The notes under the pieces were generated by a model. That model was not told the DNA's origin and did no database searches. It saw nothing but the letters and a program-made list of their open reading frames with translations. Below, piece after piece: positions 1-64,000 of a DNA stretch of 64,000 bases. This DNA comes from a virus. The stretch is from positions 1 to 64,000 of the IMG/VR virus record IMGVR_UViG_3300028840_006907. One strand, written 5' to 3'. The stretch's first letter is position 1; each line of letters opens with the position of its first letter. Made by a program: the position numbers and the translations under genes.

Positions 1-356
1 ATTATATCTGGTGGAGTTCCAAACCATAGTTTTCTGGGAGTCTTATATTTCAGTTTACCAATAGCAATACCTAGGATCAATAAAATTTCCATGATACGAT
101 GATAACTAGCCCATTGATCACCGTTTTTATTTTTACACATATTTAGGAATGTGTCACCACCGTTACTTTCCAGAAATGATTCAGGAAGCTGATTTATGAG
201 TTCACCGATATTAGCTTTGTTCTCTTCAAGTCTGCCAGGGTGAAGTCCAAAAGTTTGAAGAATGCCTTCTGCTCTGACATGTTTGGTTGTATCTTCTCCA
301 TTTTGAAAGAGACAGTTGTTTAATATTTCCTCTACGTTATTTTCAGTTAATTCCAT
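1..356 (-). CDS. hypothetical protein (partial, C-terminus beyond window edge)
   Basis: ATG at 354-356 on minus strand, frame open to position 1; co-oriented with downstream genes. Confidence 0.35.
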   Translation of the reverse strand, partial: MELTENNVEEILNNCLFQNGEDTTKHVRAEGILQTFGLHPGRLEENKANIGELINQLPESFLESNGGDTFLNMCKNKNGDQWASYHRIMEILLILGIAIGKLKYKTPRKLWFGTPPDI

Positions 357-359
357 GGA

Positions 360-605
360 TTATTCTCCTACAATTTCATCATCTACACTAAGTACCGGTG
401 ATACTACGATATACCATTTTTTACATTTTAATAATGATGTGACAGATTGACTTGATCCTATTAGTCTTCCATTATCTAATTCAACCCACCAGACCCAGGT
501 TCCGGCTTTACGTTGCCAATAACCTGGGTAACATCGGTAGAAAGAGACAGCTTTTAAATTAAACTCATCTTCAAGTCTCTTAATTAGTTTTTCACTTTTT
601 TTCAT
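360..605 (-). CDS. hypothetical protein
   Basis: 81-aa ORF; stop/start abut neighbours. Confidence 0.45.
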   Translation of the reverse strand: MKKSEKLIKRLEDEFNLKAVSFYRCYPGYWQRKAGTWVWWVELDNGRLIGSSQSVTSLLKCKKWYIVVSPVLSVDDEIVGE

Positions 606-787
606 TATTCATCGTCATCATAGCTACTATCATCATCGCTATCAGAACCGAAGATAGAATCATCATCATCAAAGGAACTTGATGATTTATAGCTACCAGA
701 TCTCTTTATTACTTTACCACATCTAGGGCATTTAGAGCCATATACAGCAGTTCCGCATTTTGAACATTTAGTCATATCACCCTCCAT
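605..787 (-). CDS. small zinc-ribbon protein with acidic Asp/Ser-rich tail
   Basis: CSKCG...CPRCG motif pair then DDDD/SDSDDD tail. Confidence 0.5.
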   Translation of the reverse strand: MEGDMTKCSKCGTAVYGSKCPRCGKVIKRSGSYKSSSSFDDDDSIFGSDSDDDSSYDDDE

Positions 788-807
788 ATTTTATTTAGAT
801 CTTTTAT

Positions 808-1467
808 TTAATTGTTAGTTCTATTAAGTTTTTTTACTTTAGAACTTTCTTCTATTTTAATATTATCAATTTCTTTAAATGCATTATTAGCAATACCTTC
901 ATAAACTTTTCGAAATTGAACAACTATCCGATTTATAAGATCTTTAATAAGGTTATTTAAAAGATACCAAATAATGCTGATGGGCCAATACATAACCCAT
1001 ACAGATATTTTCTTTTTACTTTCTTTAAATACTGGCCTTTCATAGCCATAACGAATCTGGCTTTTCCATTCCTCATGTAATTTTTTAGATATTGTTTTAG
1101 TATCTTTAGGAAGTTCCTTATCTTTTAAAAAATCCTCCCATTTTTCTTCTGTCTTTTTTGCTATCTTATTAAGCAAGAGTCCCCATTTTACCCAGGACCA
1201 TATAATTCCGAAAAGGATATATCCTGGTATTATCCATAAAAGATGGATAGGATTTTCTATTATCCATTTGAAAATGTTAATTTTTGCGAAAAATTGGATA
1301 GCTAAACTGTAAAGGACTAGCAGAACTATAGCGAATTCAAAAGAATCATGCTCTTCACAAATAATAGCTATAATAATAAAAATAAGAGTAAAAATATAGA
1401 ACCAAATTGAAATGGCAAATAGCGCTGAAAATAACGCTACAATCACTAAACCCTCCTCTTTTATCAT
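808..1467 (-). CDS. multi-pass membrane protein
   Basis: 219 aa, several long hydrophobic segments in N-terminal half. Confidence 0.5.
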   Translation of the reverse strand: MIKEEGLVIVALFSALFAISIWFYIFTLIFIIIAIICEEHDSFEFAIVLLVLYSLAIQFFAKINIFKWIIENPIHLLWIIPGYILFGIIWSWVKWGLLLNKIAKKTEEKWEDFLKDKELPKDTKTISKKLHEEWKSQIRYGYERPVFKESKKKISVWVMYWPISIIWYLLNNLIKDLINRIVVQFRKVYEGIANNAFKEIDNIKIEESSKVKKLNRTNN

Positions 1468-1500
1468 TGTTATTAGAGTCTGTTAATTTATGGCCATTCT

Positions 1501-2574
1501 TTATTCTTTGTCCTGTTGAATTAATGTATTGTTATATTCAGTATTAAAAATTAGTGTGTTATCAGCATTAGAATTACCTAGTAATATCTCTTTTATTTGA
1601 TCTATTTGTATTTCAATCTCTTGATTTGTTTTTACCGGGCAGTTATGGCTCTTATTATGGTAATTAAAATTGTCTATACCATTTGTTTCTGTATAGGTAA
1701 AATGATTATTGAGTCTTTCTTTTATATACCCGTTCATGAAATCAATATTATTGGTAAGATTATTTTCAATAATTTCTTTAAAATCATTATTATATTCAAT
1801 ACCTATACTATTTCTACCAGATGCCATAGCAGCTAGTGAGGTTGTACCGGTACCGAGAAATGGATCTAATATCACATCTCCTTTCAAGGAATACATATTA
1901 ATTAATCGGTATGGTAATTCAAAAGGAAAGGCAGCACTTCGCTCAATATTTTTATGATTAAGTTTTTGCTTTGTACCTTTAAAACTCCAAGTATCAGAGA
2001 ACCATTGATTCCTTTCTTCCCAGAAGAAAGCACTTTGTTTTCTTCTAAGTTTATCCTCAGGAGTGAGAAAGGTTCTTTTACCCATTTTTCTAAATATGAG
2101 TATGTATTCATTTTCCAGGGTTACATAAGCCCCTGCGGGAAGCATACCAGAACCCATGAATTTATTCGGGGCATTTGTTGGTTTTCTCCATAGGATTAAT
2201 GGAAGGGGAATAAGTCCTATATCCATACAGAAATCCATAACTCTGGCATGATTTGGGAATAATTGAAAAGTTTTATAAAATGTTCGAACAGCATCTCCGA
2301 TATTGAGGCAAGCAAAGCCACCGGGTTTTAGTACCCGATAACATTCTGACCATACTTTATCTAGCTCTTGATGCATAGCTTCAAAAAGTGCATTTGTTTT
2401 CATTTCTTTATCTGGTTTGATATCCAGAAAATCAAAGAACAGCATATCCCACATTTCTATCATAGGGTATGGAGGAGAAGTAATTATTAAATCAACACTA
2501 TTGCTCTTTAGTGGAAAGTTATCCCTAGAATCCCCAAAACGTATAATATGGTTAGTGATCATTGGTTCAGTCAT
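1501..2574 (-). CDS. DNA methyltransferase, beta-class amino-MTase (likely N4-cytosine or N6-adenine)
   Basis: Motif IV SPPY near N-terminus (LIITSPPYPMIEMWD) and motif I DPFLGTGTT near C-terminus; order IV then I. Confidence 0.8.
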   Translation of the reverse strand: MTEPMITNHIIRFGDSRDNFPLKSNSVDLIITSPPYPMIEMWDMLFFDFLDIKPDKEMKTNALFEAMHQELDKVWSECYRVLKPGGFACLNIGDAVRTFYKTFQLFPNHARVMDFCMDIGLIPLPLILWRKPTNAPNKFMGSGMLPAGAYVTLENEYILIFRKMGKRTFLTPEDKLRRKQSAFFWEERNQWFSDTWSFKGTKQKLNHKNIERSAAFPFELPYRLINMYSLKGDVILDPFLGTGTTSLAAMASGRNSIGIEYNNDFKEIIENNLTNNIDFMNGYIKERLNNHFTYTETNGIDNFNYHNKSHNCPVKTNQEIEIQIDQIKEILLGNSNADNTLIFNTEYNNTLIQQDKE

Positions 2575-3170
2575 AAATTGTAAATTCCTTCTAGTATTTC
2601 AGCTTTTGTTAATTTTATTCTTGAAGTAGACGGTATAACTGAATCCACTTCTTCTATTACTTCACTTAAATTTAAATTTAAAATATTTGTAATATGAATA
2701 TCAAAGTGTCTCGCTAGAGCTGTCGCGTAACTTGTCCCTCCTATATCTGGGCTATAACATAATACGATTCGGCTTAATTCATGTACGGGATCTGTATGTC
2801 CAATAATCTGATTTACATTACGTTCCATTAATAATTGCACACCACGTTCCATTTCTTGATAAGGTTTTCTGGCAACAAGATCGCACATAAATTCAGCTAT
2901 TTCTTTTTCTCGTTCAGGAATAATAGCATTGCCGATAACTTCCATCCCTGGATCATTCTTATAGGGTCTAATCCCATAAGTTTTCCAAGGTAGGTAGATA
3001 TCGGCAAAACCGTTTGCACCCTTTTCACAGGCTCTATCGGCTCCTACAGCGTGCCCACTACGTAATTTCAATTTGTAGGTATCTACAATAAATCTGCTAA
3101 CATTTTCAAGAATATTTAAATATTTTTCTGGAGTATTACGGCTACCGATTCCTGTAAAAAAACCATCCAT
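2571..3170 (-). CDS. DprA/SLOG-like Rossmann-fold protein
   Basis: FTGIGSRNTP and RSGHAVGADRACEKGA resemble DprA/Smf-SLOG nucleotide-binding motifs; 4-nt overlap with MTase gene. Confidence 0.45.
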   Translation of the reverse strand: MDGFFTGIGSRNTPEKYLNILENVSRFIVDTYKLKLRSGHAVGADRACEKGANGFADIYLPWKTYGIRPYKNDPGMEVIGNAIIPEREKEIAEFMCDLVARKPYQEMERGVQLLMERNVNQIIGHTDPVHELSRIVLCYSPDIGGTSYATALARHFDIHITNILNLNLSEVIEEVDSVIPSTSRIKLTKAEILEGIYNL

Positions 3171-3181
3171 TTTTACCTCAT

Positions 3182-3403
3182 CTAAATTTTTAAAAATAAT
3201 GAACCATCATATTTTAATTTTAAATTTTCTATCCCATTAATAATTTTAGTAAAAACTGCCTTTTTCTCTTTAGTAGTCAAGGTAATATTTAAACAGCTAG
3301 CATAATGATTGATTCCCCAATTTATTATATCTTTGTAGATATATTTCATTTGAGAACAATCTGTGATTACATAGAATACAATATCGGTCATATTATCAGT
3401 CAT
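3182..3403 (-). CDS. hypothetical protein
   Basis: 73-aa ORF, coupled to neighbours. Confidence 0.4.
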   Translation of the reverse strand: MTDNMTDIVFYVITDCSQMKYIYKDIINWGINHYASCLNITLTTKEKKAVFTKIINGIENLKLKYDGSLFLKI

Positions 3404-3681
3404 AATTTGTCTGTATTTAAATCAACAATCTCTCTATCGTAAAGTAGATCAGACCAACAATTATTTGGATTGGGTTCGGTATCTTTATTCCAATCAGCTT
3501 TCAACCCATATACAGAATAATCAACTGGGCAGAATTTTTCCGCTTCCTCCTTTGTCTGCCATACAGAACCACCACGATAGTTTTCTGTCCTTCCAAGTTT
3601 CATACATTTTTCTTGTTTTGATAAATATTGTTTATAACTTTCTGTATGCCCTATCGTAAAAATCATATGTCTCCTTTTCAT
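3400..3681 (-). CDS. hypothetical protein
   Basis: 93-aa ORF; no confident family assignment. Confidence 0.4.
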   Translation of the reverse strand: MKRRHMIFTIGHTESYKQYLSKQEKCMKLGRTENYRGGSVWQTKEEAEKFCPVDYSVYGLKADWNKDTEPNPNNCWSDLLYDREIVDLNTDKL

Positions 3682-3736
3682 GATTAATCCTTATATATTT
3701 ATACGACGCTAGCAATGCAAAAATACAGAAGTTTTT

Positions 3737-4030
3737 TTAGGCTAACATATAAGTTGTTCTAAACCAATCTTTTACCATTTCATTTTCTACACAGATATAA
3801 GCGTAAGCTTTTTCTTTTTCAAAAAACCAATATGCCACAAATACATCAGCGAAACCTGCTTCTTCTATCATTTTTTTCAAATAATATTTATTTATTTTAA
3901 TAAATTTTCCTTTATCAGAATCATCATAATCTAAAGTAAGAGTAAATTGAGGTTCAGCTTGAACTTTATTTGATACGAAATAGACCCCTTTTTCTAAAAA
4001 GTTTAAATTTCTAATTAATCTTTGTTCCAT
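3737..4030 (-). CDS. hypothetical protein
   Basis: 97-aa ORF. Confidence 0.45.
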   Translation of the reverse strand: MEQRLIRNLNFLEKGVYFVSNKVQAEPQFTLTLDYDDSDKGKFIKINKYYLKKMIEEAGFADVFVAYWFFEKEKAYAYICVENEMVKDWFRTTYMLA

Positions 4031-4032
4031 AA

Positions 4033-4224
4033 TTAATTGGGCAATCTCCTATCAGGATAAAAGGTTTCTTCGAGTTTGCCTTTTATTACTTTTTGTGTTA
4101 AGATAAGTATCTCTAAACGTTCTATATGTTCTTTATTCGTTGTCATATGTTTTTTTATTTCATGGGGATCTGCCGTGATCTCATCCCCGCATACAGGACA
4201 ACATAATTTTAATTTTTTATTCAT
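4033..4224 (-). CDS. small zinc-ribbon protein
   Basis: CCPVCG motif; start moved to internal ATG abutting upstream stop at 4217. Confidence 0.4.
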   Translation of the reverse strand: MNKKLKLCCPVCGDEITADPHEIKKHMTTNKEHIERLEILILTQKVIKGKLEETFYPDRRLPN

Positions 4225-5053
4225 AATCAATTTCTTCCGATAAGAGTAATTTGAAAAATGTTTCAGCCAATTCTTGTTCAAAGAATTTTGGCTCTCGAAT
4301 TTTTATAGTATCAAGCTTTAATAGATCTGCAAATGAATCAATTTTGATATCAATCTCTGGATCTATTAAAGGTTGACACCATTCCATCTCTTTCAACATA
4401 TCTGGTGTGAGAAATGTTTTTGCAATAAAAATATCCCCTAAATCTTCCAGGGCCAAGACTCCCATTCGAATATTTAAATAGCAATAACCATCTTTCATAG
4501 CATATTCTTTATTGCTATTTAAGATTAATCCGACTAGGATATCAGCACTAGTTGGGTCAGTTTTATAAATCCTTTTTAAATCCTCTGTGAGGGGGCTGTA
4601 TGCCCTTGGATCCACTCGTTCTTCTAGTCGCTCAATGCAGTGTGAGGTGACGAAGATATTCCCACAGGAGCCCCTATTCGGGCTCCCATACAATATCCCG
4701 CTATTTTTTATTTTATATACTCTATTGAAGTTAGTTTGGTAGGAAGCATTCCCTACACCTTTGAATTTTATATTGGTTAAGTTTATCCAGCGACCATATT
4801 TAGATCTTAATTTTTGTAGGATTTTTTCTTTTATGGCTTTTTGTTTTCGTTGAGGAATTCTTTTTTTCTGGTAATTTTTTCCACATATTTCATCGAATGT
4901 GCGGGACCAGATGATACTTATCATTGCATCTGGATGTTCTTCGAACGTTGATACGTTATCTTTACCGAAATGTTTTTTTAAAAGTTTTAGGTAATAATTT
5001 TCTTCTTCTTTGCCGTATTTGCTTACTATCCATTGAGAGGGATTCTTTTTCAC
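4217..5053 (-). CDS. hypothetical protein
   Basis: 278-aa ORF overlapping SpoVG-like gene stop by 4 nt. Confidence 0.5.
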   Translation of the reverse strand: MKKNPSQWIVSKYGKEEENYYLKLLKKHFGKDNVSTFEEHPDAMISIIWSRTFDEICGKNYQKKRIPQRKQKAIKEKILQKLRSKYGRWINLTNIKFKGVGNASYQTNFNRVYKIKNSGILYGSPNRGSCGNIFVTSHCIERLEERVDPRAYSPLTEDLKRIYKTDPTSADILVGLILNSNKEYAMKDGYCYLNIRMGVLALEDLGDIFIAKTFLTPDMLKEMEWCQPLIDPEIDIKIDSFADLLKLDTIKIREPKFFEQELAETFFKLLLSEEIDYE

Positions 5054-5307
5054 TTGTTTAGCTCCGCTTCGTATTCATCTAATACGGCATTTTCAATAAG
5101 TATTCTGGTTTCATTTTGTATTGGATGTACCATATCTACAATTTTACCAGTTTTTGTTTTTCTGCTTGGCATTGCTACAAAGTGCCCTTGCGCTCCTTCA
5201 ATAATTTTCAATCCTCGGACAATAAAGCAATCATCAAGAACAATATCAACAAAAGCTCTTACATTTCTGCTTCTATGCATTGTTACTTTTATTTCAGTAA
5301 TTTCCAA
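5050..5307 (-). CDS. spoVG: SpoVG-family nucleic-acid-binding protein
   Basis: MEITEIKV...FVAMPSRKT...HPIQNETR matches the conserved SpoVG core along its length. Confidence 0.85.
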   Translation of the reverse strand: MEITEIKVTMHRSRNVRAFVDIVLDDCFIVRGLKIIEGAQGHFVAMPSRKTKTGKIVDMVHPIQNETRILIENAVLDEYEAELNK

Positions 5308-5352
5308 TTTTTGCCTCCTTAAATACAGAGCAAATATTACTACGAAATGAGA

Positions 5353-6360
5353 TTAATCTACCCATTGAATTTTTCTACGGTACTGACCTGTTACTTCATC
5401 TATATCAGAGACATTTCCTGCTTCCTTTACTATTAAATTTAATTTACGTTTTAATTCTAGCTGAAGATCATCACTTTTTATTATTTCGGGAGAAGTATGT
5501 TTCTCCAAAAAATTATTTTTTAAATCAAGCAATTGTTTTTCAATGCTCACATCTCCAACAAAATTGAGTTCTGAAAAATCATCAATAAATTTTTTAAGTG
5601 AATTAATAGTAGGGCCTTTAACAATTTTCCCTGATTTCATATTGGTGGCGATTTTATCACAAAGAGTTACTACTTGTTCACGAAGATTTGTAACAACCTC
5701 ATTGATAAAAGAACCAATCTTTTCTTGGGCCTCTTTCTGATAAACATCGTAGGCAATATTCTCTTTTGCAATTTTATCTTCAGAAACTTTTCTCATTTTC
5801 GGTAGAGCAATTTCAAATATATTCCAGGTTAAAGAGAACCTATTTCTTAATGAAGTTGTGCTTGGATAGTATGATTTTATTCGGTCAAGAAAATTTGTGA
5901 CGAATTCTTCCTCTTCGTTTTCTTTACCTTCAATACTGAATTCATGAACACCTATTTTTGTTTGTCGGTTATAGGCAGCTTTGGCTGCTTCCTCATAAAT
6001 AGGTAGCATCTCTTTTCGTAATTTGTCGTAATCAACAATCAGGTTATCGATTAATTTATTATATGCCTCCTGATATTCCTGAAGAGTTTGCAGTATTTTT
6101 AAAAATTTCTTTTTGGGTACAAACCGTGCTGAACTTATAGGGAATTTAAAACTGTTCGTCTCAACTAGAAACCGAGCTTTACTTTCAATAGATCTGAATT
6201 TATGTATGGTTTCTTTTGGAACGAGCATCTTCTTACCAAGAAGATAAACATTAGATATAGTGTCTTTTTCTAATCCCAAGTCTTGAGCAGTCAGGATTTT
6301 TGCTCCAGTCCAGAACCGCACTTTAATTTCAACTAAAACACCATCTTTAAATATATCCAT
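5353..6360 (-). CDS. DUF3150-like protein (plasmid/phage-associated)
   Basis: N-terminal VLVEIKVRFWTGAKILTAQDLGL pattern recalled as typical of DUF3150; 335 aa. Confidence 0.4.
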   Translation of the reverse strand: MDIFKDGVLVEIKVRFWTGAKILTAQDLGLEKDTISNVYLLGKKMLVPKETIHKFRSIESKARFLVETNSFKFPISSARFVPKKKFLKILQTLQEYQEAYNKLIDNLIVDYDKLRKEMLPIYEEAAKAAYNRQTKIGVHEFSIEGKENEEEEFVTNFLDRIKSYYPSTTSLRNRFSLTWNIFEIALPKMRKVSEDKIAKENIAYDVYQKEAQEKIGSFINEVVTNLREQVVTLCDKIATNMKSGKIVKGPTINSLKKFIDDFSELNFVGDVSIEKQLLDLKNNFLEKHTSPEIIKSDDLQLELKRKLNLIVKEAGNVSDIDEVTGQYRRKIQWVD

Positions 6361-6386
6361 AATTATTTTCCTATCATTAATAAGTG

Positions 6387-6420
6387 CTGTCCCTTTAATG
6401 AAAAAGGGACAGTGTTTTTT
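6387..6420 (+). terminator. hairpin plus T-run oriented for plus-strand transcription
   Basis: ctgtcccttt...aagggacag stem followed by tgtttttt, overlapping stop of 6419-7981 gene. Confidence 0.35.
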
Positions 6421-7981
6421 ATAAGTTTAATTTCCTTTTACCTATTACCTGTTCAGCCTTCATCTCTATTGAAGCTTTTTTCACTCTACGTTTTTCAGAC
6501 CATTCACGGCCTTTCTTAATATCCTCGGCATAAAGCTGTGCTGTAAGTGATACTTCTTTAGCACTTGTAACAAGATCTTCAGTGGAGATTTCCTGATTTT
6601 TGCTGAATGAAAATTTCAGAGTATCATTAATCCAAACTTCAATTTCAGATCCACTAAAATCTTTAGTGGATTTAACTAATTGCTTTATGTCGAAGTTGCT
6701 GGGGTCACGATTTATTTTTCCCAAATGTATTGAGATAATTTTCTCTCGTTCACTATCATAAGGGAAATCAACCCAGAAGATTGCATCCATACGACCACCA
6801 CGAATTAGTTCAGGAGGTAGTTTCGTTGCATCGTTTGAAGTAGCTGCAATGAATACATCAGTTGTTCTTTCAGCCATCCAGGTTAAAAGTGTTGCTAGCA
6901 TTTTTTGAGAAGTCTCATGAACATGCCCACTTTTATTATTAGGAAAAGCTTTTTCGATTTCATCTATTCGTAAGACACAGGGAGCATTTGCATCAACGAT
7001 ACTGAGACATCTTCTTATTTTCTCTTCTGATTCTCCTACAAGACTGCCTAAGAGTGCACCTACATCAAGACTGAATAATGGTCGTTCCCAAACATTGGCG
7101 ATAACTTTTGCAACAAGAGATTTCCCGGTTCCAGGAGGGCCTACGAATAGGGCACCTTTGGGAGGAAGTATTCCATATTCTCTGGCTTTCTCAGTGAAAC
7201 AATTCTTTCTAACCAGGAGCCATTCTTTAAGGTTATCAAGTCCACCAATGTCATCAAGAGTTTCTGTTACACTAATAACATTTAAGAGCCCTGTGTTTTT
7301 AACAACTGTGGCTTTTTCTCTATTAATAACATTAATGTCAAGACATTTTCTTTCAACAATGGAAAGAGAATAAGCATTCTCAGCTTCATCAGATGTCATT
7401 CCTAAGGCTGCTTCAATAAGGGAAGTATCGTTTTTGGGGTACTCTATGGAATCTTCAACTGATCTAGCGTTTTCATAAGCTCGTTGACATACTTTTCTTA
7501 AAGTATTTGTATTTGGAAGTTTAAAATCAATTACAGTTATTTCTTTCTTTAATTCATCTGGTATTGATGAACAGCAAGAAACAACAGCCAAAACTCTACC
7601 GGTAGATCTGCAGATTGGAATTATATTTCGTATTTTTCGTTGAATAAAATCTTTTTTAATATAATGGTGGAAATCTAATAGAAAAAAGATAGAATTCTCT
7701 TCCACCTCTTCTGAACTTATCCAATTAAGAGCCAACATTGGATCATCTGTTTTAGTTTTTATATCTAATTTATTTTCTAAAAGGATATTATTATCATTTA
7801 TTTCTCGGAGTTTGATTCCATCAACTCTGTCCCAAGAATAAAATTTATAATTTCCTTTGTCAAGTTTGTTCATTTCATTTGCTAGGGTTCTTATCGCCCT
7901 ATGTTCTTCATGGGTCTGTATCCACAAAATTGTATAACCGGCACGTATATAATTTGAAAAGATGTGTTCTTTATTTTCCAT
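6419..7981 (-). CDS. AAA+ ATPase with N-terminal domain of unknown function
   Basis: Walker A GPPGTGKS, Walker B VLRIDEIEKA, sensor region TSNDATKLPPELIRGGRMD. Confidence 0.85.
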   Translation of the reverse strand: MENKEHIFSNYIRAGYTILWIQTHEEHRAIRTLANEMNKLDKGNYKFYSWDRVDGIKLREINDNNILLENKLDIKTKTDDPMLALNWISSEEVEENSIFFLLDFHHYIKKDFIQRKIRNIIPICRSTGRVLAVVSCCSSIPDELKKEITVIDFKLPNTNTLRKVCQRAYENARSVEDSIEYPKNDTSLIEAALGMTSDEAENAYSLSIVERKCLDINVINREKATVVKNTGLLNVISVTETLDDIGGLDNLKEWLLVRKNCFTEKAREYGILPPKGALFVGPPGTGKSLVAKVIANVWERPLFSLDVGALLGSLVGESEEKIRRCLSIVDANAPCVLRIDEIEKAFPNNKSGHVHETSQKMLATLLTWMAERTTDVFIAATSNDATKLPPELIRGGRMDAIFWVDFPYDSEREKIISIHLGKINRDPSNFDIKQLVKSTKDFSGSEIEVWINDTLKFSFSKNQEISTEDLVTSAKEVSLTAQLYAEDIKKGREWSEKRRVKKASIEMKAEQVIGKRKLNL

Positions 7982-7998
7982 TTTTCAATTCCTTGAAT

Positions 7999-8202
7999 TT
8001 AAAATTGATTGACTATCTGCTTTATTACTAAAATTCTATTAAGGATTTTATTGTAGGATAGATTTAATTCGTTTTGAATATCTTTAAATGAATAGTTATT
8101 CAGAAAATAAAAAGATGCTATAGTATAAGTTATCCTATCTACTTTTGACTTTAAATAATTCATAATGTCTTTGGAATAATTATTTGCATGTGGCATATTC
8201 AT
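7999..8202 (-). CDS. sigma-70 region-4-like HTH protein
   Basis: ITYTIASFYFLNNYSFKDIQNELNLSYNKILNRI is paralogous to C-terminus of 8180-8800 product. Confidence 0.35.
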   Translation of the reverse strand: MNMPHANNYSKDIMNYLKSKVDRITYTIASFYFLNNYSFKDIQNELNLSYNKILNRILVIKQIVNQF

Positions 8203-8800: not shown

Positions 8801-8809
8801 AATAAAACC

Positions 8810-53064: not shown

Positions 53065-53095
53065 AACCTATTAACATTAAACAATTGAGGTAGTT

Positions 53096-55354: not shown

Positions 55355-55363
55355 GAGATTTTT

Positions 55364-56359: not shown

Positions 56360-56370
56360 AGGAGATAAGC

Positions 56371-56694
56371 ATGGTTGAAAAATCATGGGAAGAAATAGAA
56401 GGAAGAGACTGGACTGCTATACAGATAAAAGATGCTCAAAAAAAGCATAATGATGGCATAATAGAAAACATAGTTATGAAATTTGATAAGCCAGAGACAG
56501 CGAATGGTTTCAATAGATGGTTACAATTTTGCGGGGAATTTAAAATAACTGTAGAAGACATTACTCCTGCAGATGTCCGTCTTGTATGGTATGGCCCGAA
56601 TTTGAATAACATCACATTTATGACTGAGAAGAATTCTCAAAAGTACATTAATGAAAAGACGAGATTGATTTTAATAAAGGATATTGAAAGATGA
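56371..56694 (+). CDS. hypothetical protein
   Basis: 107-aa ORF. Confidence 0.5.
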   Translation: MVEKSWEEIEGRDWTAIQIKDAQKKHNDGIIENIVMKFDKPETANGFNRWLQFCGEFKITVEDITPADVRLVWYGPNLNNITFMTEKNSQKYINEKTRLILIKDIER

Positions 56695-56939
56695 TCACAC
56701 GCATTGGATTGGATGCTGCGATCAGCATGATCGATAAGGATATCCCCGAGGCCCTGGAGCCTTACTGGGCTACTGTGAAGCAATTTATAGATGAGTTGCC
56801 AGAAGATACCTTAATCCAGTTGCTTCAATCTATTGCTAATCAGATAAATACTAGGGGTAATTGTCTGATAATTCAGCAGGAAGAAGATTTACGAGTAGTA
56901 AAAGATATTGATTTAGTATTATTTAAAGATTTAAAATAG
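56691..56939 (+). CDS. small protein, tandem paralog A
   Basis: Shares I.E.LE.YW.TV...DDLPE.TL..L..SIA core with next gene. Confidence 0.5.
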   Translation: MITRIGLDAAISMIDKDIPEALEPYWATVKQFIDELPEDTLIQLLQSIANQINTRGNCLIIQQEEDLRVVKDIDLVLFKDLK

Positions 56940-56949
56940 GAGCGGTAGT

Positions 56950-57195
56950 ATGAAAGTTAAACGTTCTGATTTAACAAAAGCTATACGTGAACTTGATGAA
57001 AAAATACCTAGTGAATTAGAATCTTATTGGAAAACAGTCAGATTAGCCCTAGATGATTTACCAGAAGAAACTTTATGTAATTTGTTTGGATCTATTGCCA
57101 GAGAACTGGGTTTAAAAAATCAATGTCTTCTGATTCGTAAAGGGGATGATATTGGTATAGTTACAAAATTTAAAGCGATAAGGATACCTGATTAA
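56950..57195 (+). CDS. small protein, tandem paralog B
   Basis: Same length and motif spacing as 56691-56939 product. Confidence 0.5.
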   Translation: MKVKRSDLTKAIRELDEKIPSELESYWKTVRLALDDLPEETLCNLFGSIARELGLKNQCLLIRKGDDIGIVTKFKAIRIPD

Positions 57196-57197
57196 TT

Positions 57198-57545
57198 ATG
57201 AGACAGATAAAATTGGCTTCAAATGATAATGATATTACAGCTAAATTAAAAATGACTATAAATTCTAAAATACACCAATTACATGTATTATTGAGTAAAA
57301 ATATAGAACTTGGTAATCTCTTGGAATTAAAAGATGAAGCCTCCGATAATGATTATATCGAATTCGGTGATATAATGTTGAGACAAAGGTTACTCTTGGC
57401 AGAAATAGATTCTTTAATGATTTCTTTAAAACAGATGATTATGATGATTTCAAAAAATAAAAGAGTACAAATAGAGTGGGATGAAATTTCAGAGGAAGAT
57501 TTAAAAGCTGTACGAGATAGTTATTTCCATAAAATAATGGAGTAA
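57198..57545 (+). CDS. hypothetical protein
   Basis: 115-aa ORF. Confidence 0.45.
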   Translation: MRQIKLASNDNDITAKLKMTINSKIHQLHVLLSKNIELGNLLELKDEASDNDYIEFGDIMLRQRLLLAEIDSLMISLKQMIMMISKNKRVQIEWDEISEEDLKAVRDSYFHKIME

Positions 57546-57547
57546 TA

Positions 57548-57829
57548 ATGAATCAAGAGTTTTCAGAGACACCAGTTTCCATTGAGATAGAATTTGATTT
57601 GGATAGATTCAAAATTGATCCGGAAAAAAGTGTGAGGTATACTTTTCATTTTAAAGGCAGTGATGAGTTAAATTCGATAGAAGAAGCTGATATAAAAAGT
57701 TTACATAGTCTATACGCATGTTCTAGTGCTGTTACTATTATGCTTAAAAAATGTATAGATTCTTATTATCATTATATGAATAAAGCTGGAGAAGAAATTA
57801 ACACAATAGTAGAAGAGGGAAAAAAGTGA
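57548..57829 (+). CDS. hypothetical protein
   Basis: 93-aa ORF. Confidence 0.45.
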   Translation: MNQEFSETPVSIEIEFDLDRFKIDPEKSVRYTFHFKGSDELNSIEEADIKSLHSLYACSSAVTIMLKKCIDSYYHYMNKAGEEINTIVEEGKK

Positions 57830-58215
57830 AACAATTAATCCTAAATGAAGGAGATGGTGTAACAACGGTAATTCTAAAAGCAATGATAAATTCATCAATG
57901 GCTGAACTGGATTATTATGAAAACACTGCTTCGAAGATGAATATAGAGAATTGGGATGTTACCGTAGATGTTGAGAGAATCCAAGTTAAAATTGATTCTT
58001 TGGTTAGAATGTTACAAGTACATTTAAAGAAGATCTATTTGACATGGGAAGAAATTGATACTAAAGATCTGGTTATAAAAGATTGGAAAGTATGGAGTTC
58101 AAAGAATAATAAAAATACTTGTTTTGGATCAAAACCAGGTTCCCAGGCTCAGGCAGAGAATGGTTGTGAAAATTGTTGGGATCAGAATGAATGCTTTTCT
58201 AATATAGAAAAATAA
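57826..58215 (+). CDS. hypothetical protein
   Basis: 129-aa ORF, 4-nt overlap. Confidence 0.5.
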   Translation: MKQLILNEGDGVTTVILKAMINSSMAELDYYENTASKMNIENWDVTVDVERIQVKIDSLVRMLQVHLKKIYLTWEEIDTKDLVIKDWKVWSSKNNKNTCFGSKPGSQAQAENGCENCWDQNECFSNIEK

Positions 58216-58389
58216 TATGATTTCAAGATGGAATGTGTTTTTTAACGTGATACTCATCCAGATAATTATGTTATTTGTTACTGAGGCAAAGGAAGGTTTA
58301 CATTTAGTTCGATATTTATCATTTGCCGTTATAGATGTGTTACTTCTCATCTACGCATTAATAGGTTATAGGAAATCAAAAGAAAAATA

Positions 58390-58833
58390 GTGAGGGAAAG
58401 AATGTCATTTTTAGAACCTGAAGATGTTGTTGATCAATTAAAGATTTATAAAAGAGATAGTAGTGATATAGTTCTTTTAAAAGCCATGATAAATAAAGAA
58501 GTGGCTAAATTATTTGTTTTAAATCAAACAAGTGAAGTTATTTTGGAAGATATTCTGAAAATGGATTCAGGATCTGTTCCTGTTTTTTCAATTGAAAAAG
58601 TCACTGAGATGGGACTTGATTATTGTATCTCGGTTGCAAAGATAATTTCTTTAATAAATTCTTTGATACAATCTGGTCATGATGTTCTGGAGTGGGAAGA
58701 AGTGAGTCTATATAAGATAGGTAAAATAGACGGTTTAAAAATATTGGAAAAATTAAGCAATAATATGGACAAATTAAATGAAGCAATGAAAAGTTTTAAG
58801 ATGGATGAGGATTCTTCCGAGGATATAAATTGA
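58390..58833 (+). CDS. hypothetical protein
   Basis: 147-aa ORF. Confidence 0.5.
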   Translation: MRERMSFLEPEDVVDQLKIYKRDSSDIVLLKAMINKEVAKLFVLNQTSEVILEDILKMDSGSVPVFSIEKVTEMGLDYCISVAKIISLINSLIQSGHDVLEWEEVSLYKIGKIDGLKILEKLSNNMDKLNEAMKSFKMDEDSSEDIN

Positions 58834-59198
58834 TGGATTTTTTATTCGAAAAATCAAGGAAAGTCCCTAAGCATAGATGCACGAAATGTTTTAAAGAGAT
58901 GGATCATCTGACAGGAGATGGTATACCTACTGTTGGAAGTCTTATTGCCTGTATAAATTGTGGCCATATTATGATGATTGGAGAATCTTTTAAAATGCTT
59001 GAGGTAGATATACCTCAATTAGCAAGAGAATCAGATATCAAAGATTATTGTAAAATATGTCTTGCTAGTAAAGTTCTTGCTAATGTATTTCACAAAAGAA
59101 ATGGATATTATGCTTCTACCATTTTTGAGGATATTGAAAAACATTGTCCAGGAGGTTGCCATTGGATTGAAGGTACTGGCCAAGGTTTGTATAATTGA
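58830..59198 (+). CDS. zinc-ribbon-like protein
   Basis: CTKCF...CINCGH and CKIC...CPGGCH. Confidence 0.5.
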   Translation: MMDFLFEKSRKVPKHRCTKCFKEMDHLTGDGIPTVGSLIACINCGHIMMIGESFKMLEVDIPQLARESDIKDYCKICLASKVLANVFHKRNGYYASTIFEDIEKHCPGGCHWIEGTGQGLYN

Positions 59199-59250
59199 TT
59201 TTTAGAAATAACTATTGAAGAAATAAAAGATATTTTAGAAAAATTATAAT

Positions 59251-59757
59251 ATGGATCAAATAATAACAGAAATAGCAGAAGTAGCCAAGCAGAATTTAAT
59301 TAAACATGGAAGTTTGGCTCCGGTAGTATTACCTCATAAAAATGGTGTGATTGTACCACAATTAGTAATGAATCTGAGATTTGAAAATGATGAACAGAAA
59401 TACAAAGCATTTGTAATGATTGGAATAACTGCTCAGAAATTTTTTAAAAATGGCTTTATTGACAGAATAGTTCTTGTAATAGAAGGTGCTATGAAAGCTT
59501 ATGATGAGCATACAAGCGAATTGGTAAAAAGAAATCCTGAGCTTTATGCCCCTTTAACATATCCAGAGAGTCAGCGCCAAGAAATCATAATTATTAATGA
59601 CTTTGATTTGATAAAAAAGACGGATTGTTTTTATAGTATAGAATTCAAGAAAAACGGGACTAGCTTTACATTTAAACAATTAGAAAAATATGGATCGATG
59701 CCAGGAGGCATGCGGGATAAATTTTACCTTGGATTAAATTATGAAAAAAATCTATAA
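59251..59757 (+). CDS. hypothetical protein
   Basis: 168-aa ORF. Confidence 0.5.
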   Translation: MDQIITEIAEVAKQNLIKHGSLAPVVLPHKNGVIVPQLVMNLRFENDEQKYKAFVMIGITAQKFFKNGFIDRIVLVIEGAMKAYDEHTSELVKRNPELYAPLTYPESQRQEIIIINDFDLIKKTDCFYSIEFKKNGTSFTFKQLEKYGSMPGGMRDKFYLGLNYEKNL

Positions 59758-60082
59758 ATATTTTATATCTTTTTTTGTTGTGTTATCAACAATATCTATC
59801 GTAATATTGTATATCATTGTTTTTAATTGCTTGAAACATGAAAGATATTATCCTTATAGTTATTTCCATTCCCTAAAACATTATCGTTATAAACCTTTTG
59901 ATTATAATAAATATTATGCCATAACATTTACAGGTTCTCTGGAAAATCAAGATAGTTGCTATGTTTTAAAGAATAACAATCTTATAAAAGCTCGTTTTTA
60001 TAATTCGCCACAATTAGATCTATTAAATATAAAAGACAGTTCAAAAGTAGAAGTAATTATACAAGGAGTAATGGAAGAATGA
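59741..60082 (+). CDS. membrane protein
   Basis: Helix FISFFVVLSTISIVILYIIVF. Confidence 0.45.
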   Translation: MKKIYKYFISFFVVLSTISIVILYIIVFNCLKHERYYPYSYFHSLKHYRYKPFDYNKYYAITFTGSLENQDSCYVLKNNNLIKARFYNSPQLDLLNIKDSSKVEVIIQGVMEE

Positions 60083-60351
60083 AAGACAAAGAATATAATT
60101 TAAATCTTAAAGCTGGGTTCAAAATAGGTAATAATAAAATATGTGGCAAAAGAACTAAATATAGATCTGAAGAAACAGCTCGTAAGGCACTTTTCATGAG
60201 ATTAGAGAGGAAAAAAAGTCAAAATTTTTTAGGATATTACCCATGTGTATTCTGTGGAGGATGGCATATCGGTTTGAAAATGTTTATGAAATCATTAATA
60301 AAATATGAGAAGATAGAACTTCCAAAAGAAAAAGTAGATATGTTGAGATAA
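60079..60351 (+). CDS. hypothetical basic protein
   Basis: 90-aa ORF, 4-nt overlap. Confidence 0.45.
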   Translation: MKDKEYNLNLKAGFKIGNNKICGKRTKYRSEETARKALFMRLERKKSQNFLGYYPCVFCGGWHIGLKMFMKSLIKYEKIELPKEKVDMLR

Positions 60352-60747
60352 AGTTTTTTAGAGGTATTTAATATGGCATTAGAAGTATTATCTATACCGG
60401 AAGAACAATTACTTGAAGTAGTTATGGTCATTCGTGCAGGCTTGCAAGTCGTTGATGTTTCACGTGAAACATCAGATTACTTAATAAATTGGTGTAAAGA
60501 AGAAGAGGAGTATCTAAATGGGTGATTTGAAAGGAAAAGTAGAATGCCCCGTTTGCGGAGAAGAAGTGGATTTAGATGATTCGGAAAAAGCAGTAGCCCA
60601 TATGTCAAAAAGATGAAGCTCATAAAAATCATTTGGATAGGGCTCGAATTAATCATCTGATGGAGATGTTTACTGGATCTGGAATTATAAGGAAGGTCTG
60701 AATAGTTATAAAAATTATTAATTTAGTTAAAAAGAAGGAGTAAAAAA

Positions 60748-61041
60748 GTGCAGACAGATAATTTATTCTGTGATTTAAGAGAAGATGATGAATACTTTCC
60801 TATTGGATGTAATACAAGTCCGATAGCTCTAATATGGATAGAGAAAGGGGAAATTCAAACAAAGTATATGCAAGGTTGGTGTAAAAGTCGTTCCCGAATG
60901 GTAGCTGAAAATATAAGAGAATTACGAGATAAAAAGATCCCTTTTAAAATTATAGGTACATGGAGTGGTGAGTATAGCTCGAATATGTTTAATCTTAATC
61001 CTGAGAGAATTGAAAAGCTTTTGGAACTTCATGGTAATTAA
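60748..61041 (+). CDS. hypothetical protein
   Basis: 97-aa ORF. Confidence 0.45.
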   Translation: MQTDNLFCDLREDDEYFPIGCNTSPIALIWIEKGEIQTKYMQGWCKSRSRMVAENIRELRDKKIPFKIIGTWSGEYSSNMFNLNPERIEKLLELHGN

Positions 61042-61045
61042 TACA

Positions 61046-61498
61046 ATGCTTGTTGAAGAAAAAATCATAGAGGTTTTGGATTTAGATGAATGTCATGTTC
61101 TTTTGGAGAATTTCAAGAGTGAGATTTTTTGCCATTATAATGTGCCAGAAGATTTCAGTACCAGAATTTTAGTAAATGTCCTTAAGAAGATCGGGTTTGA
61201 AAATCAAGTTAACCGTCTCGATGCTACTCTTGATATGTGTCATTTAGAATATTCTGAGGATGGGGATTTCTATAAGAAAATTGTAAAGCATGCAGTTTAT
61301 TTATTTCAATTGTTTATAATTTGGGATAGGCAAGAAGAATTATGTGAAATAGAAATACCTACCCAAAGCCTGATCGATGATCTGCCCGAATTACCGCTGG
61401 TGAAATTTAAAGAAGATGGAAATGCAGAATGTCAGATTGAGTTAATGGTTCAAGTTAGGGAATTTATGAGATCGATGGTAATTAAGGATTGGGTATAA
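61046..61498 (+). CDS. hypothetical protein
   Basis: Start moved to ATG just after upstream stop (MLVEEKIIEV). Confidence 0.45.
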   Translation: MLVEEKIIEVLDLDECHVLLENFKSEIFCHYNVPEDFSTRILVNVLKKIGFENQVNRLDATLDMCHLEYSEDGDFYKKIVKHAVYLFQLFIIWDRQEELCEIEIPTQSLIDDLPELPLVKFKEDGNAECQIELMVQVREFMRSMVIKDWV

Positions 61499-61510
61499 GG
61501 TTCCGTTTTT

Positions 61511-61732
61511 ATGGGTAGTTGTAGGTATAAATATGTTTTAGATCCAGATATTACCCAAATGAATATTTGGGATGATATAAAAAGGCGCATTGAGAGAGAA
61601 AAATTGGTACAGGCTTTAAAAAATGGTGATGATAAAACTATACAAAGATTGATGCCTGATAAAGACCTACAGGAAATGCTGAAACAATTTCATGATGCTT
61701 GGATAAGCAGATTCCCGGAAGATGACATCTGA
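61511..61732 (+). CDS. hypothetical protein
   Basis: 73-aa ORF. Confidence 0.45.
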   Translation: MGSCRYKYVLDPDITQMNIWDDIKRRIEREKLVQALKNGDDKTIQRLMPDKDLQEMLKQFHDAWISRFPEDDI

Positions 61733-62109
61733 TGGCGAGTAGATACGAAATATTATTAAGACAAGAGGATCCCTTTTATGGGAAATGCCCTAAGGGTGGG
61801 AACCATGAATGGGGAACTGATGGACAGCATTCAAATCAATATTGTAAGAAATGTTTTTTAAATAGACCAGAACCACCGAAACTTGAGGATAAATACATAA
61901 CTGAAAATAATAAGACTATAAGTTTATTTAGTGAAAAAAAGTGCTTTGATGGCCAGGATCATGTGTGGGGTATTGATGGTGCTCATTCAAATGTTTATTG
62001 TAAAAAATGCTTTATGAGTAAACCTGAAGATACCCCTGCAGATCCGTATGAAGATGAAGTTGATTTAAAGAAGAAAAAGGAGTTTGATATAACAGATTTG
62101 AATGGCTAA
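61732..62109 (+). CDS. protein with two tandem zinc-ribbon-like repeats
   Basis: CPKGGNHEWGTDGQHSNQYCKKCF and CFDGQDHVWGIDGAHSNVYCKKCF. Confidence 0.5.
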   Translation: MASRYEILLRQEDPFYGKCPKGGNHEWGTDGQHSNQYCKKCFLNRPEPPKLEDKYITENNKTISLFSEKKCFDGQDHVWGIDGAHSNVYCKKCFMSKPEDTPADPYEDEVDLKKKKEFDITDLNG

Positions 62110-62812
62110 TGGAGGGAAAGTGACTAAAGATAAAAATGTTTCAAAATATAAAATAACCGATCCAGAATTTTGGATTAATGAAAAAGGGGATCATCCGACT
62201 CCTAGAACGATGATAACTGTTAATCATGTACAAAGAGGTATTTGGAAACCTGCTGATAGTATTATCAGTGTAGAAAGTGTTTTAAAATATCTGAAAAGTT
62301 TAGCAGAAGTGAAAGATGAAATCCCTATGGAGGATGACGGATCTGATAGAATTTCTGTAGCATTGACATGTTCAAGAATGTTAAATTTTGAGAATAATTC
62401 CAAAGAAGAAGTTGAACCTTTTCTTAGATTAGATCTCCCAATAGTTTCAGTTAAAGCACCCTTGGCTCTTTTTGGAAACATTGAATATGAAGAACATAAA
62501 CTTTCTAAAATGATTATAGAAATGGCTCAGAAAGTTCATATCGATGTTGAAAAAAAATATGTGGAGATTGGGGGTTTAAAAGGGCTTTATGGTAACATGA
62601 ATTTGGTAGAATATACTCAAAATAATGAAAATGAATTATCAGAAGTTTTTTTTGGAAGATGGCTTGAATGTCAATCTATAATTTTTGAATTCAGTATTCT
62701 TAATTTTAATGATGATAATTTATTTACTATTCGAGGTCTTTGGTTAGTAGACCATTGGGATTTTATAGACGTTTTTACTTCTCCAATATTTAATATCATG
62801 ATAAAAGAGTAA
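62102..62812 (+). CDS. hypothetical protein
   Basis: 236-aa ORF. Confidence 0.5.
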   Translation: MANGGKVTKDKNVSKYKITDPEFWINEKGDHPTPRTMITVNHVQRGIWKPADSIISVESVLKYLKSLAEVKDEIPMEDDGSDRISVALTCSRMLNFENNSKEEVEPFLRLDLPIVSVKAPLALFGNIEYEEHKLSKMIIEMAQKVHIDVEKKYVEIGGLKGLYGNMNLVEYTQNNENELSEVFFGRWLECQSIIFEFSILNFNDDNLFTIRGLWLVDHWDFIDVFTSPIFNIMIKE

Positions 62813-62816
62813 TAGA

Positions 62817-63362
62817 ATGGTGAAAAAAGAAGAAGTAGTTAAGTTACTTGAAGAACGGGGCTATGGAAGATTTAATGAAGAGTCCTGGATATTGGGATTT
62901 GCAGAACTTCGATCAATATGTGAGATCCAAGCGCATCTAACTGAAACCAAATATGCTGGTACCGATGAATCCGATTCTTGGAGAATACAAATAATGTATG
63001 AATTTGAGAAGGGGATCTTCGTTATGAGCCAGCGCAATATAGTTGAAAACGGAGTCCTTTTACGTGATGAATTTATAGAATGGGATACCAATTTAAGGCT
63101 TTTTATCGAGAGGTTCAGAATACTATCTCCCAATCAATTAATATTTGTGGGACCTGAGAAGGAACCTATGATCCTAAATCCAGGAGAACATGTTAATGAT
63201 ATTCATCCAATAACCGGTTTATGCACTAAGTTAACTCCTCTTTATGGTAGTTGGTTGAAATTGTTAAGGAGTGATTTGGATGAACTGGAAGAATTAGTCA
63301 AATTGTTAAAAAAAGCTAAGATAGAATTAAAACCATTAGTAGAAGATCTTACCAATGAATAA
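62817..63362 (+). CDS. hypothetical protein
   Basis: 181-aa ORF. Confidence 0.5.
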   Translation: MVKKEEVVKLLEERGYGRFNEESWILGFAELRSICEIQAHLTETKYAGTDESDSWRIQIMYEFEKGIFVMSQRNIVENGVLLRDEFIEWDTNLRLFIERFRILSPNQLIFVGPEKEPMILNPGEHVNDIHPITGLCTKLTPLYGSWLKLLRSDLDELEELVKLLKKAKIELKPLVEDLTNE

Positions 63363-63372
63363 GGAGTATGTA

Positions 63373-63552
63373 TGGATGAAATGATTAGTTGCCCACGCTG
63401 TGATGGGGATCCTGGAGCAATTTTGGATGGTGGTCATCCATGTTTTATGTGTAATGGTACTGGAAAAGTCAGAGGTAAGGATTTTACTTTTCATCCTGAT
63501 TACAGAGAACCTGAAAGAGACAAAGAAGAATGATATTCAGATTTATACGTAA
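63373..63552 (+). CDS. small zinc-finger protein (below ORF-track cutoff)
   Basis: CPRCDG...CFMCNGTGKV (CxxCxGxG-like); AAGGAG upstream of ATG. Confidence 0.35.
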
Positions 63553-63838
63553 ATCGTTTTGGACGTTTATTATGATTATAGCCTTTCCAATTGATTACGT
63601 TGGATGGAATTTAATATATGGTGGCACATTTGGCTATAGACCATTAAAACAATGTGTCAAAGATGGATTAAAACAATTAGAAGAATATAAAAGAAAGATA
63701 GATAAATTTTGAAAGAATTTTGGTTAAAAGTACTAGCTGCTTTCATAGGTAATGCTATTGGTGCCCCTTTAGCAATTTTATTTATTTGGCTAATTATAAA
63801 ATTCACAAATTTATAATCATAGAGAAGGAACCCTTATA

Positions 63839-64000
63839 ATGGAACAAGAGATGTTACATGGAATTAATATCATGGAATTCGGGAATACTATTCAGATAGC
63901 TGGTATTATCATGAATAGCGATAGTATGTCTTATTTGATCCCGTTGCCCGATGATGATATCTTGGAAGCAAAGAATTTCCCACTTGATACTGATCAGTGG
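63839..64000 (+). CDS. hypothetical protein (partial, runs off window end)
   Basis: ATG at 63839 preceded by AGAAGGAA; open to window end. Confidence 0.35.
   Translation, partial: MEQEMLHGINIMEFGNTIQIAGIIMNSDSMSYLIPLPDDDILEAKNFPLDTDQW

Follow-up and report, generated by a model that had tools for sequence, protein, structure and literature searches.

A 64-kb stretch without recognisable virion genes as the probable accessory arm of a ~470-kb extrachromosomal genome

Introduction

The DNA considered here, positions 1 to 64,000 of IMG/VR virus record IMGVR_UViG_3300028840_006907 (64,000 nt, 32% guanine plus cytosine [GC]; the whole of this stretch is called the window below), raises a simple question: what sort of element carries 64 kb in a row with no virion, lysis or integration gene that can be recognised? 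The original prediction had read it as either a non-structural arm of a large, possibly jumbo, phage or a plasmid-like element, and rightly called this an argument from absence. These two are still the only serious candidates. The element is now placed at about 470 kb, so "large, possibly jumbo" was right and even understated, and because the replicon is this large, a window without such genes is an ordinary, expected layout and no anomaly. The window is probably the non-structural accessory arm of this ~470-kb extrachromosomal genome, which is most likely that of a huge tailed phage.

Placement on a ~470-kb element

Exact-protein look-up matched the left end of the window to ENA ERZ27256798 contig k141_1708087 (469,021 bp) and the right end to JGI 3300017963 contig Ga0180437_10000019 (388,651 bp). 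The overlaps of the window with both public contigs are 100% identical, and the longest copy found is 469,617 bp. The proteins of the window, which are singletons at 90% identity, occur in NCBI, JGI, ENA and Logan. By coordinate arithmetic, both public contigs end in the same 77-bp tandem array (51.79–51.86 kb in the window), coming from opposite sides. Contig ends that meet in one tandem repeat are compatible with a ~470-kb replicon that is closed or circularly permuted, its assemblies breaking at the array. The window and its flanks were surveyed over 103 kb without interruption (−9.2 kb to +94 kb in window-equivalent coordinates), or 22% of the genome; about 366 kb lies beyond.

Phage and plasmid collections do not contain the element: in Megablast, 50 kb of the window matched none of 50,697 phage records, and 25 kb of it none of 72,556 plasmids (PLSDB). 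A tblastn search of phages with 11 concatenated proteins gave isolated single-gene matches only and no syntenic relative, and the element was not found in 185,579 GTDB species representatives or in the metagenome contigs searched.

These results bear on the idea that the window is chromosomal, for instance a genomic island or the remnant of a prophage in a bacterium with a small genome. The NCBI copy is not filed among phage genomes, and SpoVG, a sigma factor and FtsK, all encoded in the window, are cellular gene types. However, no ribosomal, rRNA, tRNA or core metabolic gene is found in the 103 kb, a family match is lacking for some 87% of the genes of the window, the GTDB search was negative, and the contig sizes of 469,021 and 469,617 bp, together with breaks confined to one tandem repeat, agree with a closed replicon of ~470 kb. 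A chromosomal origin is considered very improbable.

Search for virion, plasmid and RNA genes

Profile hidden Markov model annotation, a structure-based search and inspection of the remainder of the contig had been proposed as checks on the original reading. For the first, all proteins from open reading frames (ORFs) were joined by linkers into 23 chunks of ~1 kb and scanned against PHROGs and Pfam, with fewer than 25 families listed for each chunk; the 20 largest unannotated proteins were also scanned against NCBIfam. No structural or packaging gene was found in the window by this route. Specifically, there was no match there to a capsid, portal, terminase, tail, baseplate, holin, endolysin, integrase, recombinase or transposase, and equally none to a plasmid Rep, ParA/ParB, relaxase, type IV secretion system or coupling protein. 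ARAGORN found no tRNA or tmRNA in the window, and nothing in it reached the gathering score in Rfam, the matches of two gene-poor spots at E up to 1 being no better than chance. The statement that terminase, portal, capsid, tail, holin, endolysin, integrase and RNA genes are not recognisable here has thus held up in PHROGs, Pfam, NCBIfam, ARAGORN and Rfam alike.

Two packaging candidates were considered and rejected. Gene g025 matches phrog_2666 ("terminase large subunit") at 2.7e-9, but this is outweighed by its FtsK/SpoIIIE match at 1.8e-94 and by the Pfam families FtsK_SpoIIIE and FtsK_alpha. Gene g046 (24248–24628) reaches PF11053 at just 16.8 bits, under the 25-bit cut-off, by way of an acidic tail.

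Inspection of the remainder of the contig extended to 103 of the ~470 kb, and to that extent revealed neither virion nor plasmid hallmark genes. No baseplate or lysis gene is found in the 103 kb; several small proteins with one or two transmembrane segments are encoded, none adjoining a muralytic enzyme. No recombinase or transposase was matched there, and a tRNA for use as an attachment site is missing too. Plasmid replication, partition, relaxase and type IV secretion genes were not seen in the flanks, in precomputed Pfam tables and in PHROGs searches of 10 proteins only, and the flanks have no Rfam families.

Reality of the small genes

A quite different reason for such negative searches would be that a reassigned stop codon or assembly errors have broken up long genes, so that the profile models fail. 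The ORFs are unusually short, and huge phages with recoded stop codons are known (PMC7162821). ORFs were called by a greedy, strand-coherent procedure with a minimum of 38 amino acids (aa), after which off-strand and in-repeat ORFs were removed; 139 of the 158 ORFs of at least 38 aa are plausible genes, close to the "about 130 genes, mostly small" first described. They have a median length of 101 aa and a mean of 135 aa; 69 are shorter than 100 aa, 13 have at least 300 aa and three at least 400 aa. Coding density is 90–94%, with a median of 4 nt between genes. About 18 of the 139 match any family.

Against fragmentation, all three stop codons terminate genes (TAA 94, TGA 28, TAG 17). Reading through any single one of them hardly adds long ORFs, changing the number with at least 300 aa from 13 to 13–18, and neighbouring genes in the same frame are fewer (29) than expected by chance (~45); stop-codon recoding as a source of the short ORFs is ruled out by these counts. 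In addition, 84% of the genes start with ATG and 67% have a motif resembling a Shine-Dalgarno (SD) sequence, the annotated genes give full-length domain matches, and the window is identical in independent assemblies. A related 17.9-kb contig (L020) is collinear with 37–55 kb of the window, although many insertions and deletions break up the collinearity; 20 of its proteins are in the same order, with 26–76% identity. Since these ORFs are conserved in order as discrete genes, the small ORFs are real genes, and an artefact is scarcely credible. With its short genes, narrow gaps and standard code, the architecture of the window is phage-like.

The g105 family

The structure-based check was run on g105, the largest and best-conserved unknown of the window and its only unannotated ORF of capsid or sheath size. 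A confident AlphaFold model built from a 13-sequence alignment had a predicted local distance difference test score (pLDDT) of 85.5 and a predicted template modelling score (pTM) of 0.87. Foldseek comparison of the model with the PDB gave nothing below E 1e-3, the best weak matches being WYL/Sm-like barrels, and a search of PDB sequences also gave nothing. Among predicted viral structures (BFVD), the best match was an uncharacterised protein of the jumbo Bacillus phage SP-15 (E 7e-7, template modelling scores 0.47/0.55); the other best ones are likewise uncharacterised proteins. Going by the model, g105 is not of an HK97, portal, sheath, tube or terminase fold, in keeping with the original claim, and its predicted fold looks novel.

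Twelve homologues have 27–67% identity to g105, and the family comprises 238 clusters at 50% identity. It occurs on six IMG/VR viral contigs (64–330 kb). On two of these (L015 and L016) the homologue is at most 10 kb from a major head protein gene (phrog_20655, E 1e-41 to 1e-44), and on a third (L017) at most 10 kb from a large terminase gene (phrog_2, E 8e-35). These head- or terminase-bearing contigs span 64–115 kb; another homologue is on the 330-kb contig. A tRNA nucleotidyltransferase and a polymerase are also found at most 10 kb from g105 homologues on IMG/VR contigs.

Flanking genes and a CRISPR-Cas locus

To the left of the window lie further small unknown genes. The right flank has, in order, genes for an HNH endonuclease, a phosphohydrolase, a 1514-aa protein, a glycosyltransferase, a radical-SAM enzyme, a methyltransferase and a sulfotransferase, and further on a ~3-kb CRISPR array, a cas operon, and then small genes (RNase T, DUF4031, DUF488, radical SAM). 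The first radical-SAM gene is split by a LAGLIDADG intein. The 1514-aa protein, the only very large ORF product in the 103 kb, is highly charged (15% Lys and 11% Glu), with no cysteine and no hydrophobic segment; it had no match in PHROGs, Pfam (precomputed), the PDB or IMG/VR.

The cassette of a GT2 glycosyltransferase, the intein-split radical-SAM enzyme and a methyltransferase, with or without the sulfotransferase (L002/L004 in the element), recurs in other mobile elements (L005, L006), which suggests that it is a mobile modification cassette. One orthologue of the radical-SAM/glycosyltransferase cassette (45% identity) lies inside a typical siphovirus head-tail module (L006), and the L005 copy adjoins a gene for the anti-Pycsar protein Apyc1.

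The cas operon encodes Cse1 (647 aa), Cas7 (361 aa; family CT1975), Cas5 (216 aa), a Cas6e-type protein (214 aa; PF08798), a 51-aa ORF and a ResIII helicase of 743 aa, in which Pfam finds no HD domain. No Cas1, Cas2 or separate Cas11 is encoded within 10 kb on either side of Cas7. With type I-E-like genes but none of these three in that range, and no HD domain seen in the helicase, the locus is probably a type I-E-derived variant. The same operon architecture is found in a 44%-identical relative (L012). Huge phages are reported to have CRISPR-Cas systems of this kind: loci without Cas1, Cas2 and Cas4 and with a helicase in the place of Cas3 are known in them, and an I-C variant has been described (PMC7162821).

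The array has ~51 units with hairpin repeats of 29–30 nt. The three leader-proximal repeats are identical (ATGTTCCCCGCCCCTGCGGGGATTCCCCGA), while the remaining ones diverge to 65–70% identity, with the GC hairpin kept by compensatory changes in the stem. The period falls along the array from ~60 to ~50 nt, leaving spacers of ~21 nt. No protospacer was found in IMG/VR for the one spacer searched, and comparison with all loci fetched gave only chance 11–14-mers.

Phage or plasmid

Between phage and plasmid, the former is considered likely. Apart from the CRISPR-Cas configuration, this draws on the g105 family, which elsewhere sits beside major head and large terminase genes; on the HNH homing endonuclease and LAGLIDADG intein of the right flank; and on the window gene g014, which belongs to the phage family phrog_8638. 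The gene sizes and the share of orphans are also phage-like, the radical-SAM/glycosyltransferase cassette has its orthologue in a siphovirus head-tail module, and plasmid replication, partition, relaxase or type IV secretion genes were not seen in the 103 kb. Contigs with distant homologues point the same way. A 202-kb contig with a single homologue in the 27–44% identity class carries EF-Ts, NUDIX and R2K genes, others with single homologues (27–44% identity) of g105 or Cas7 also encode Cpn10 and SNF2, and an Amidase_2 protein and a CCA-adding enzyme are encoded beside the 44%-identical copy of the cas operon.

Several observations weigh against a phage. No HK97-fold major capsid, portal, large terminase or tail gene is present in the surveyed 103 kb, and capsid and terminase proteins of distant relatives, including the L017 large terminase, found no homologue there when used as probes. 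Nor is there a tRNA in the 103 kb, whereas many huge phages carry tRNAs. The contig was not found in the IMG/VR set searched or in INPHARED, although there is a copy in NCBI. The IMG/VR contigs with g105 have just one to three genes in common with the element and so are distant relatives of it. Genes for DUF932 and DUF3150 proteins, orphan methylases and FtsK-like ATPases are also found on plasmids and on integrative and conjugative elements. Finally, a few plasmid-like elements above 200 kb with CRISPR-Cas have been reported as well (PMC7162821).

The same observations could be accommodated by a giant, CRISPR-bearing megaplasmid-like element with no virion genes anywhere, the window being an accessory or leading-type region made up of small genes for anti-defence and DNA handling. 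Such an element would account for the lack of virion hallmarks in the 103 kb and of the contig from the IMG/VR set, CRISPR-bearing plasmid-like sequences of this size class are documented, and the window does encode DUF932, DUF3150, orphan methyltransferase, FtsK/SpoIIIE and DprA-like proteins, kinds that are common on conjugative elements. Yet no library yielded a Rep, ParA/ParB, relaxase, type IV secretion or coupling protein in the window, and PLSDB had no match. A median gene length of 101 aa is unusual for a plasmid, as is an orphan share of 87%. The HNH and intein homing elements, the g105 family with its capsid and terminase neighbours in IMG/VR phages, and the EF-Ts, CCA-adding enzyme, Cpn10 and endolysin-type amidase encoded on contigs with distant homologues also tell against it. 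A megaplasmid is considered unlikely, if clearly less so than a piece of chromosome.

The window is one-seventh of the genome, with a candidate control region flanked by two divergent blocks of accessory genes that are small and fast-evolving. If the element is a huge tailed phage, the virion genes would lie in the remaining ~366 kb; virion, packaging and lysis genes would be missing from the window because in a ~470-kb genome they occupy other regions, and an integrase would not be expected in a lytic huge phage. The block may act as an early, host-takeover or anti-defence region. Of its few recognisable genes, one set points to DNA modification and handling (orphan methyltransferase, PAPS [phosphoadenosine phosphosulfate]-reductase-like and DprA-like proteins, FtsK-type translocase, AAA+ ATPase, DUF932 and DUF3150 proteins), another the takeover of transcription (sigma-70-like factor, SpoVG, helix-turn-helix [HTH] proteins), and a third nucleotide or sugar metabolism (deoxyribonucleotidase-like domain, epimerase).

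A more far-reaching idea, put forward tentatively and as rather doubtful, is that the element stands for an undescribed lineage of megaphage-sized replicons, with at least 83 kb of almost exclusively orphan genes around a conserved, repeat-rich control or origin region and an unusual Cas1/2-less I-E-like system. The orphan genes, which fill the window and adjoining flanks, could be a reservoir of host-takeover or anti-defence functions. Alternatively, the element may not be a tailed phage at all.

Whichever applies, the window now has its place on a near-complete genome of ~470 kb that is present in several public assemblies and has relatives, CRISPR-Cas and homing elements. It offers conserved unannotated small genes, the g105 family, and a repeat-rich junction as a candidate origin or early-promoter hub.

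Gene content of the window

The features of the window and two from the right flank are collected in Table 1.

Table 1. Features of the window, with flank features in the coordinates of their own loci.
Feature	Position	Strand	Evidence or remark
Leftward block, ~115 tightly packed small genes	1..51517	-	sole + strand exception 13699-14712; runs at least 9.2 kb past the left end of the window
g005, orphan DNA methyltransferase (N6_N4_Mtase)	1501..2574	-	PF01555 2.8e-45; phrog_67 2e-42
g006, DprA-like protein	2571..3170	-	phrog_768 6.9e-28
g012, SpoVG homologue	5050..5307	-	PF04026 3.2e-27, full length
g013, DUF3150 protein	5353..6360	-	PF11348 2.4e-10; also precomputed on the ENA contig
g014, AAA+ ATPase of phage-borne family	6419..7981	-	phrog_8638 6.5e-120; PF00004 5.9e-31
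g015 (206 aa, sigma-70/extracytoplasmic function [ECF]-like) and g016 (67 aa)	7999..8800	-	TIGR02937 2.2e-6, below curated cut-off; phrog_351 0.005 (weak)
g025, soluble FtsK/SpoIIIE-type DNA translocase	12356..13540	-	phrog_1358 1.8e-94; PF01580 6.3e-54; PF17854 8.1e-22
g026, C-terminal 5'-3' deoxyribonucleotidase-like domain	13699..14712	+	phrog_2643 7.7e-18
g029, 686 aa, largest gene of the window, two PKD-like domains	15270..17330	-	PF22352 5.2e-9, two stretches; CarbopepD_reg_2 weak
g031, HTH protein	17640-18146		
g033, NAD-dependent epimerase/reductase	18540..19607	-	PF07993 1.1e-21; PF01370 8e-11; phrog_540
g039, PAPS-reductase-like protein	20974..21882	-	phrog_424 7.1e-28
12-bp x3.8 tandem repeat in g042	23460-23505		perfect; TCATTATTATCC
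g052, DUF5983	25956-26261		
Second gene-poor stretch, ~1 kb	35240-36300		only short opposite-strand ORFs of odd composition; 24-bp x2.6 repeat at 35655-35715
Leader motif, three copies	38535-38560, 38844-38869, 39251-39276	-	AATCTGACATCTCTTAAAAAGGA
g103, GP88-family protein	41466..42086	-	PF17338 1.1e-12; L020 orthologue 55% identity
g105, 432-aa conserved protein	42628..43926	-	
g114, DUF932 protein	46878..48008	-	PF06067 1.7e-44; phrog_1221 2.2e-59; 69% identity in L020
Non-coding junction between divergent blocks, 1.35 kb	51518..52872		only long non-coding stretch of the window
77-bp x4.4 array	51573-51914		AT-rich, beside g123
20-bp x2.5 array	52313-52363		
14-bp x16 array	52404-52629		G-rich
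Rightward block, ~30 small genes	52873..64000	+	zero annotated family matches (one weak phrog of unknown function); extends to ~+75 kb outside the window
1514-aa protein	L002 13525-18069		~+14 to +18 kb
cas genes; CRISPR array	L007 8031-14892; L007 14990-18000		window-equivalent ~+75 to +86 kb

Few of these genes call for comment beyond the table. The closest cultured homologues of the g014 ATPase, at 28–30% identity, are AAA-ATPases of Corndog-like mycobacteriophages and of Rhizobium and Aeromonas phages. The small g016 is a paralogue of the C-terminal HTH region of g015 (48% identity). The g025 translocase consists of alpha and motor domains, with no hydrophobic segment or membrane anchor and no gamma domain seen; Pfam reports no TraD/VirD4 or TcpA signature in it. 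The product of g029 starts with a CarboxypepD_reg-like stretch and has a hydrophobic N-terminus, probably a signal peptide from its sequence, in which case the protein would be secreted or surface-located; it had no structural match in PHROGs, a PDB sequence search or NCBIfam. PHROGs of unknown function match g061, g091, g098, g109 and g116. An impression from the sequence that g065 might be beta-clamp-like found no support in a PDB sequence search, phage tblastn, PHROGs or Pfam, and its single-sequence AlphaFold model (pLDDT 33) was not used. It can be noted that regulators and motors of cellular type (the SpoVG homologue g012, the sigma-70/ECF-like g015 with g016, and the FtsK/SpoIIIE protein g025) all lie within the accessory block.

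Some short repeated sequences accompany the small genes. A 23–25-nt sequence (AATCTGACATCTCTTAAAAAGGA on the minus strand), identical in three copies and ending in the SD-like AAAGGA, stands directly upstream of the start codons of the consecutive small genes g093, g094 and g095; a fourth, partial copy is in the right flank. This leader may be a shared translational or RNA-processing signal. It is a local motif, and no genome-wide DNA motif was found. A perfect 12-bp tandem repeat (TCATTATTATCC) lies in the 5' end of the small minus-strand ORF g042, where it encodes MRIIMRIIMRII..., and may be a slippage-prone tract. The second gene-poor stretch has no Rfam match and is not conserved in L020; the 34–36 kb interval that spans it has the most negative GC skew of the window (−0.435).

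The repeat-rich junction

The two blocks diverge from a junction with three sets of tandem repeats. In L020 a junction with the same layout is found at the same place (930–2250), with a 10-bp repeat in eight copies in its GC-rich half and a 111-bp repeat in 2.1 copies in the 18%-GC half, which adjoins the orthologue of g123. The layout is thus conserved, while the repeat sequences differ. The junction is a candidate for a conserved control region, with either divergent early promoters or an iteron-type origin. GC skew flips sign here, but over the 103 kb it follows the gene strand, falling back beyond +75 kb with the minus-strand genes, and the flip is therefore not usable as evidence for an origin; skew as proof of one was rejected. 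No DnaA box is present, and no initiator gene is recognisable.

Comparison with known systems

The element can be set beside several known kinds. With plasmid-like elements above 200 kb it shares CRISPR-Cas on a large extrachromosomal element, and with the leading or anti-defence regions of conjugative plasmids it shares one-directional arrays of small genes with an orphan methylase and DUF932-type proteins. It differs in having no relaxase, type IV secretion, partition or Rep gene in the window or surveyed flanks, every defining gene of conjugative or mobilisable plasmids tested being missing from the 103 kb, and in its homing endonuclease and intein and a g105 family that is found in capsid- and terminase-bearing viral contigs. 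As for a temperate phage or integrative element, no tyrosine or serine recombinase is present in the 103 kb, and the contig sizes fit a free replicon. The genes that define Caudoviricetes (capsid, terminase, portal, tail) were likewise not seen in this 22% of the genome.

The accessory or early arms of jumbo phages, such as Bacillus phage SP-15 and the hyperplastic regions of T4-like phages, also have co-oriented, very small and poorly conserved genes, and the best structural neighbour of the g105 model is the SP-15 protein mentioned above. Here, in contrast, there is no nucleotide or multi-gene similarity to any of the 50,697 phage records, and the dark region, at least 83 kb, is larger than many whole phage genomes.

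CRISPR arrays in huge phages are reportedly compact; that of the element has ~51 units with highly divergent repeats. Its Cas genes are I-E-like (Cse1, Cas7e, Cas5, Cas6e) rather than an I-C variant, and it also differs from the huge phages above 200 kb described by Al-Shayeb et al. (2020; PMC7162821) in that neither a terminase or capsid gene in the 103 kb nor a tRNA in the same 22% was seen. Even so, those metagenomic huge phages are the closest known kind. Like them, the element is non-cellular and above 200 kb, a genome of several hundred kb from sediment metagenomes, with long runs of small hypothetical genes, a CRISPR-Cas system without Cas1, Cas2 or Cas4 and with a helicase where Cas3 would be, and translation genes (EF-Ts, CCA-adding enzyme), in this case on contigs with distant homologues. 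Should capsid genes be present on the rest of the contig, the element would be one more in the small set of phages above 450 kb.

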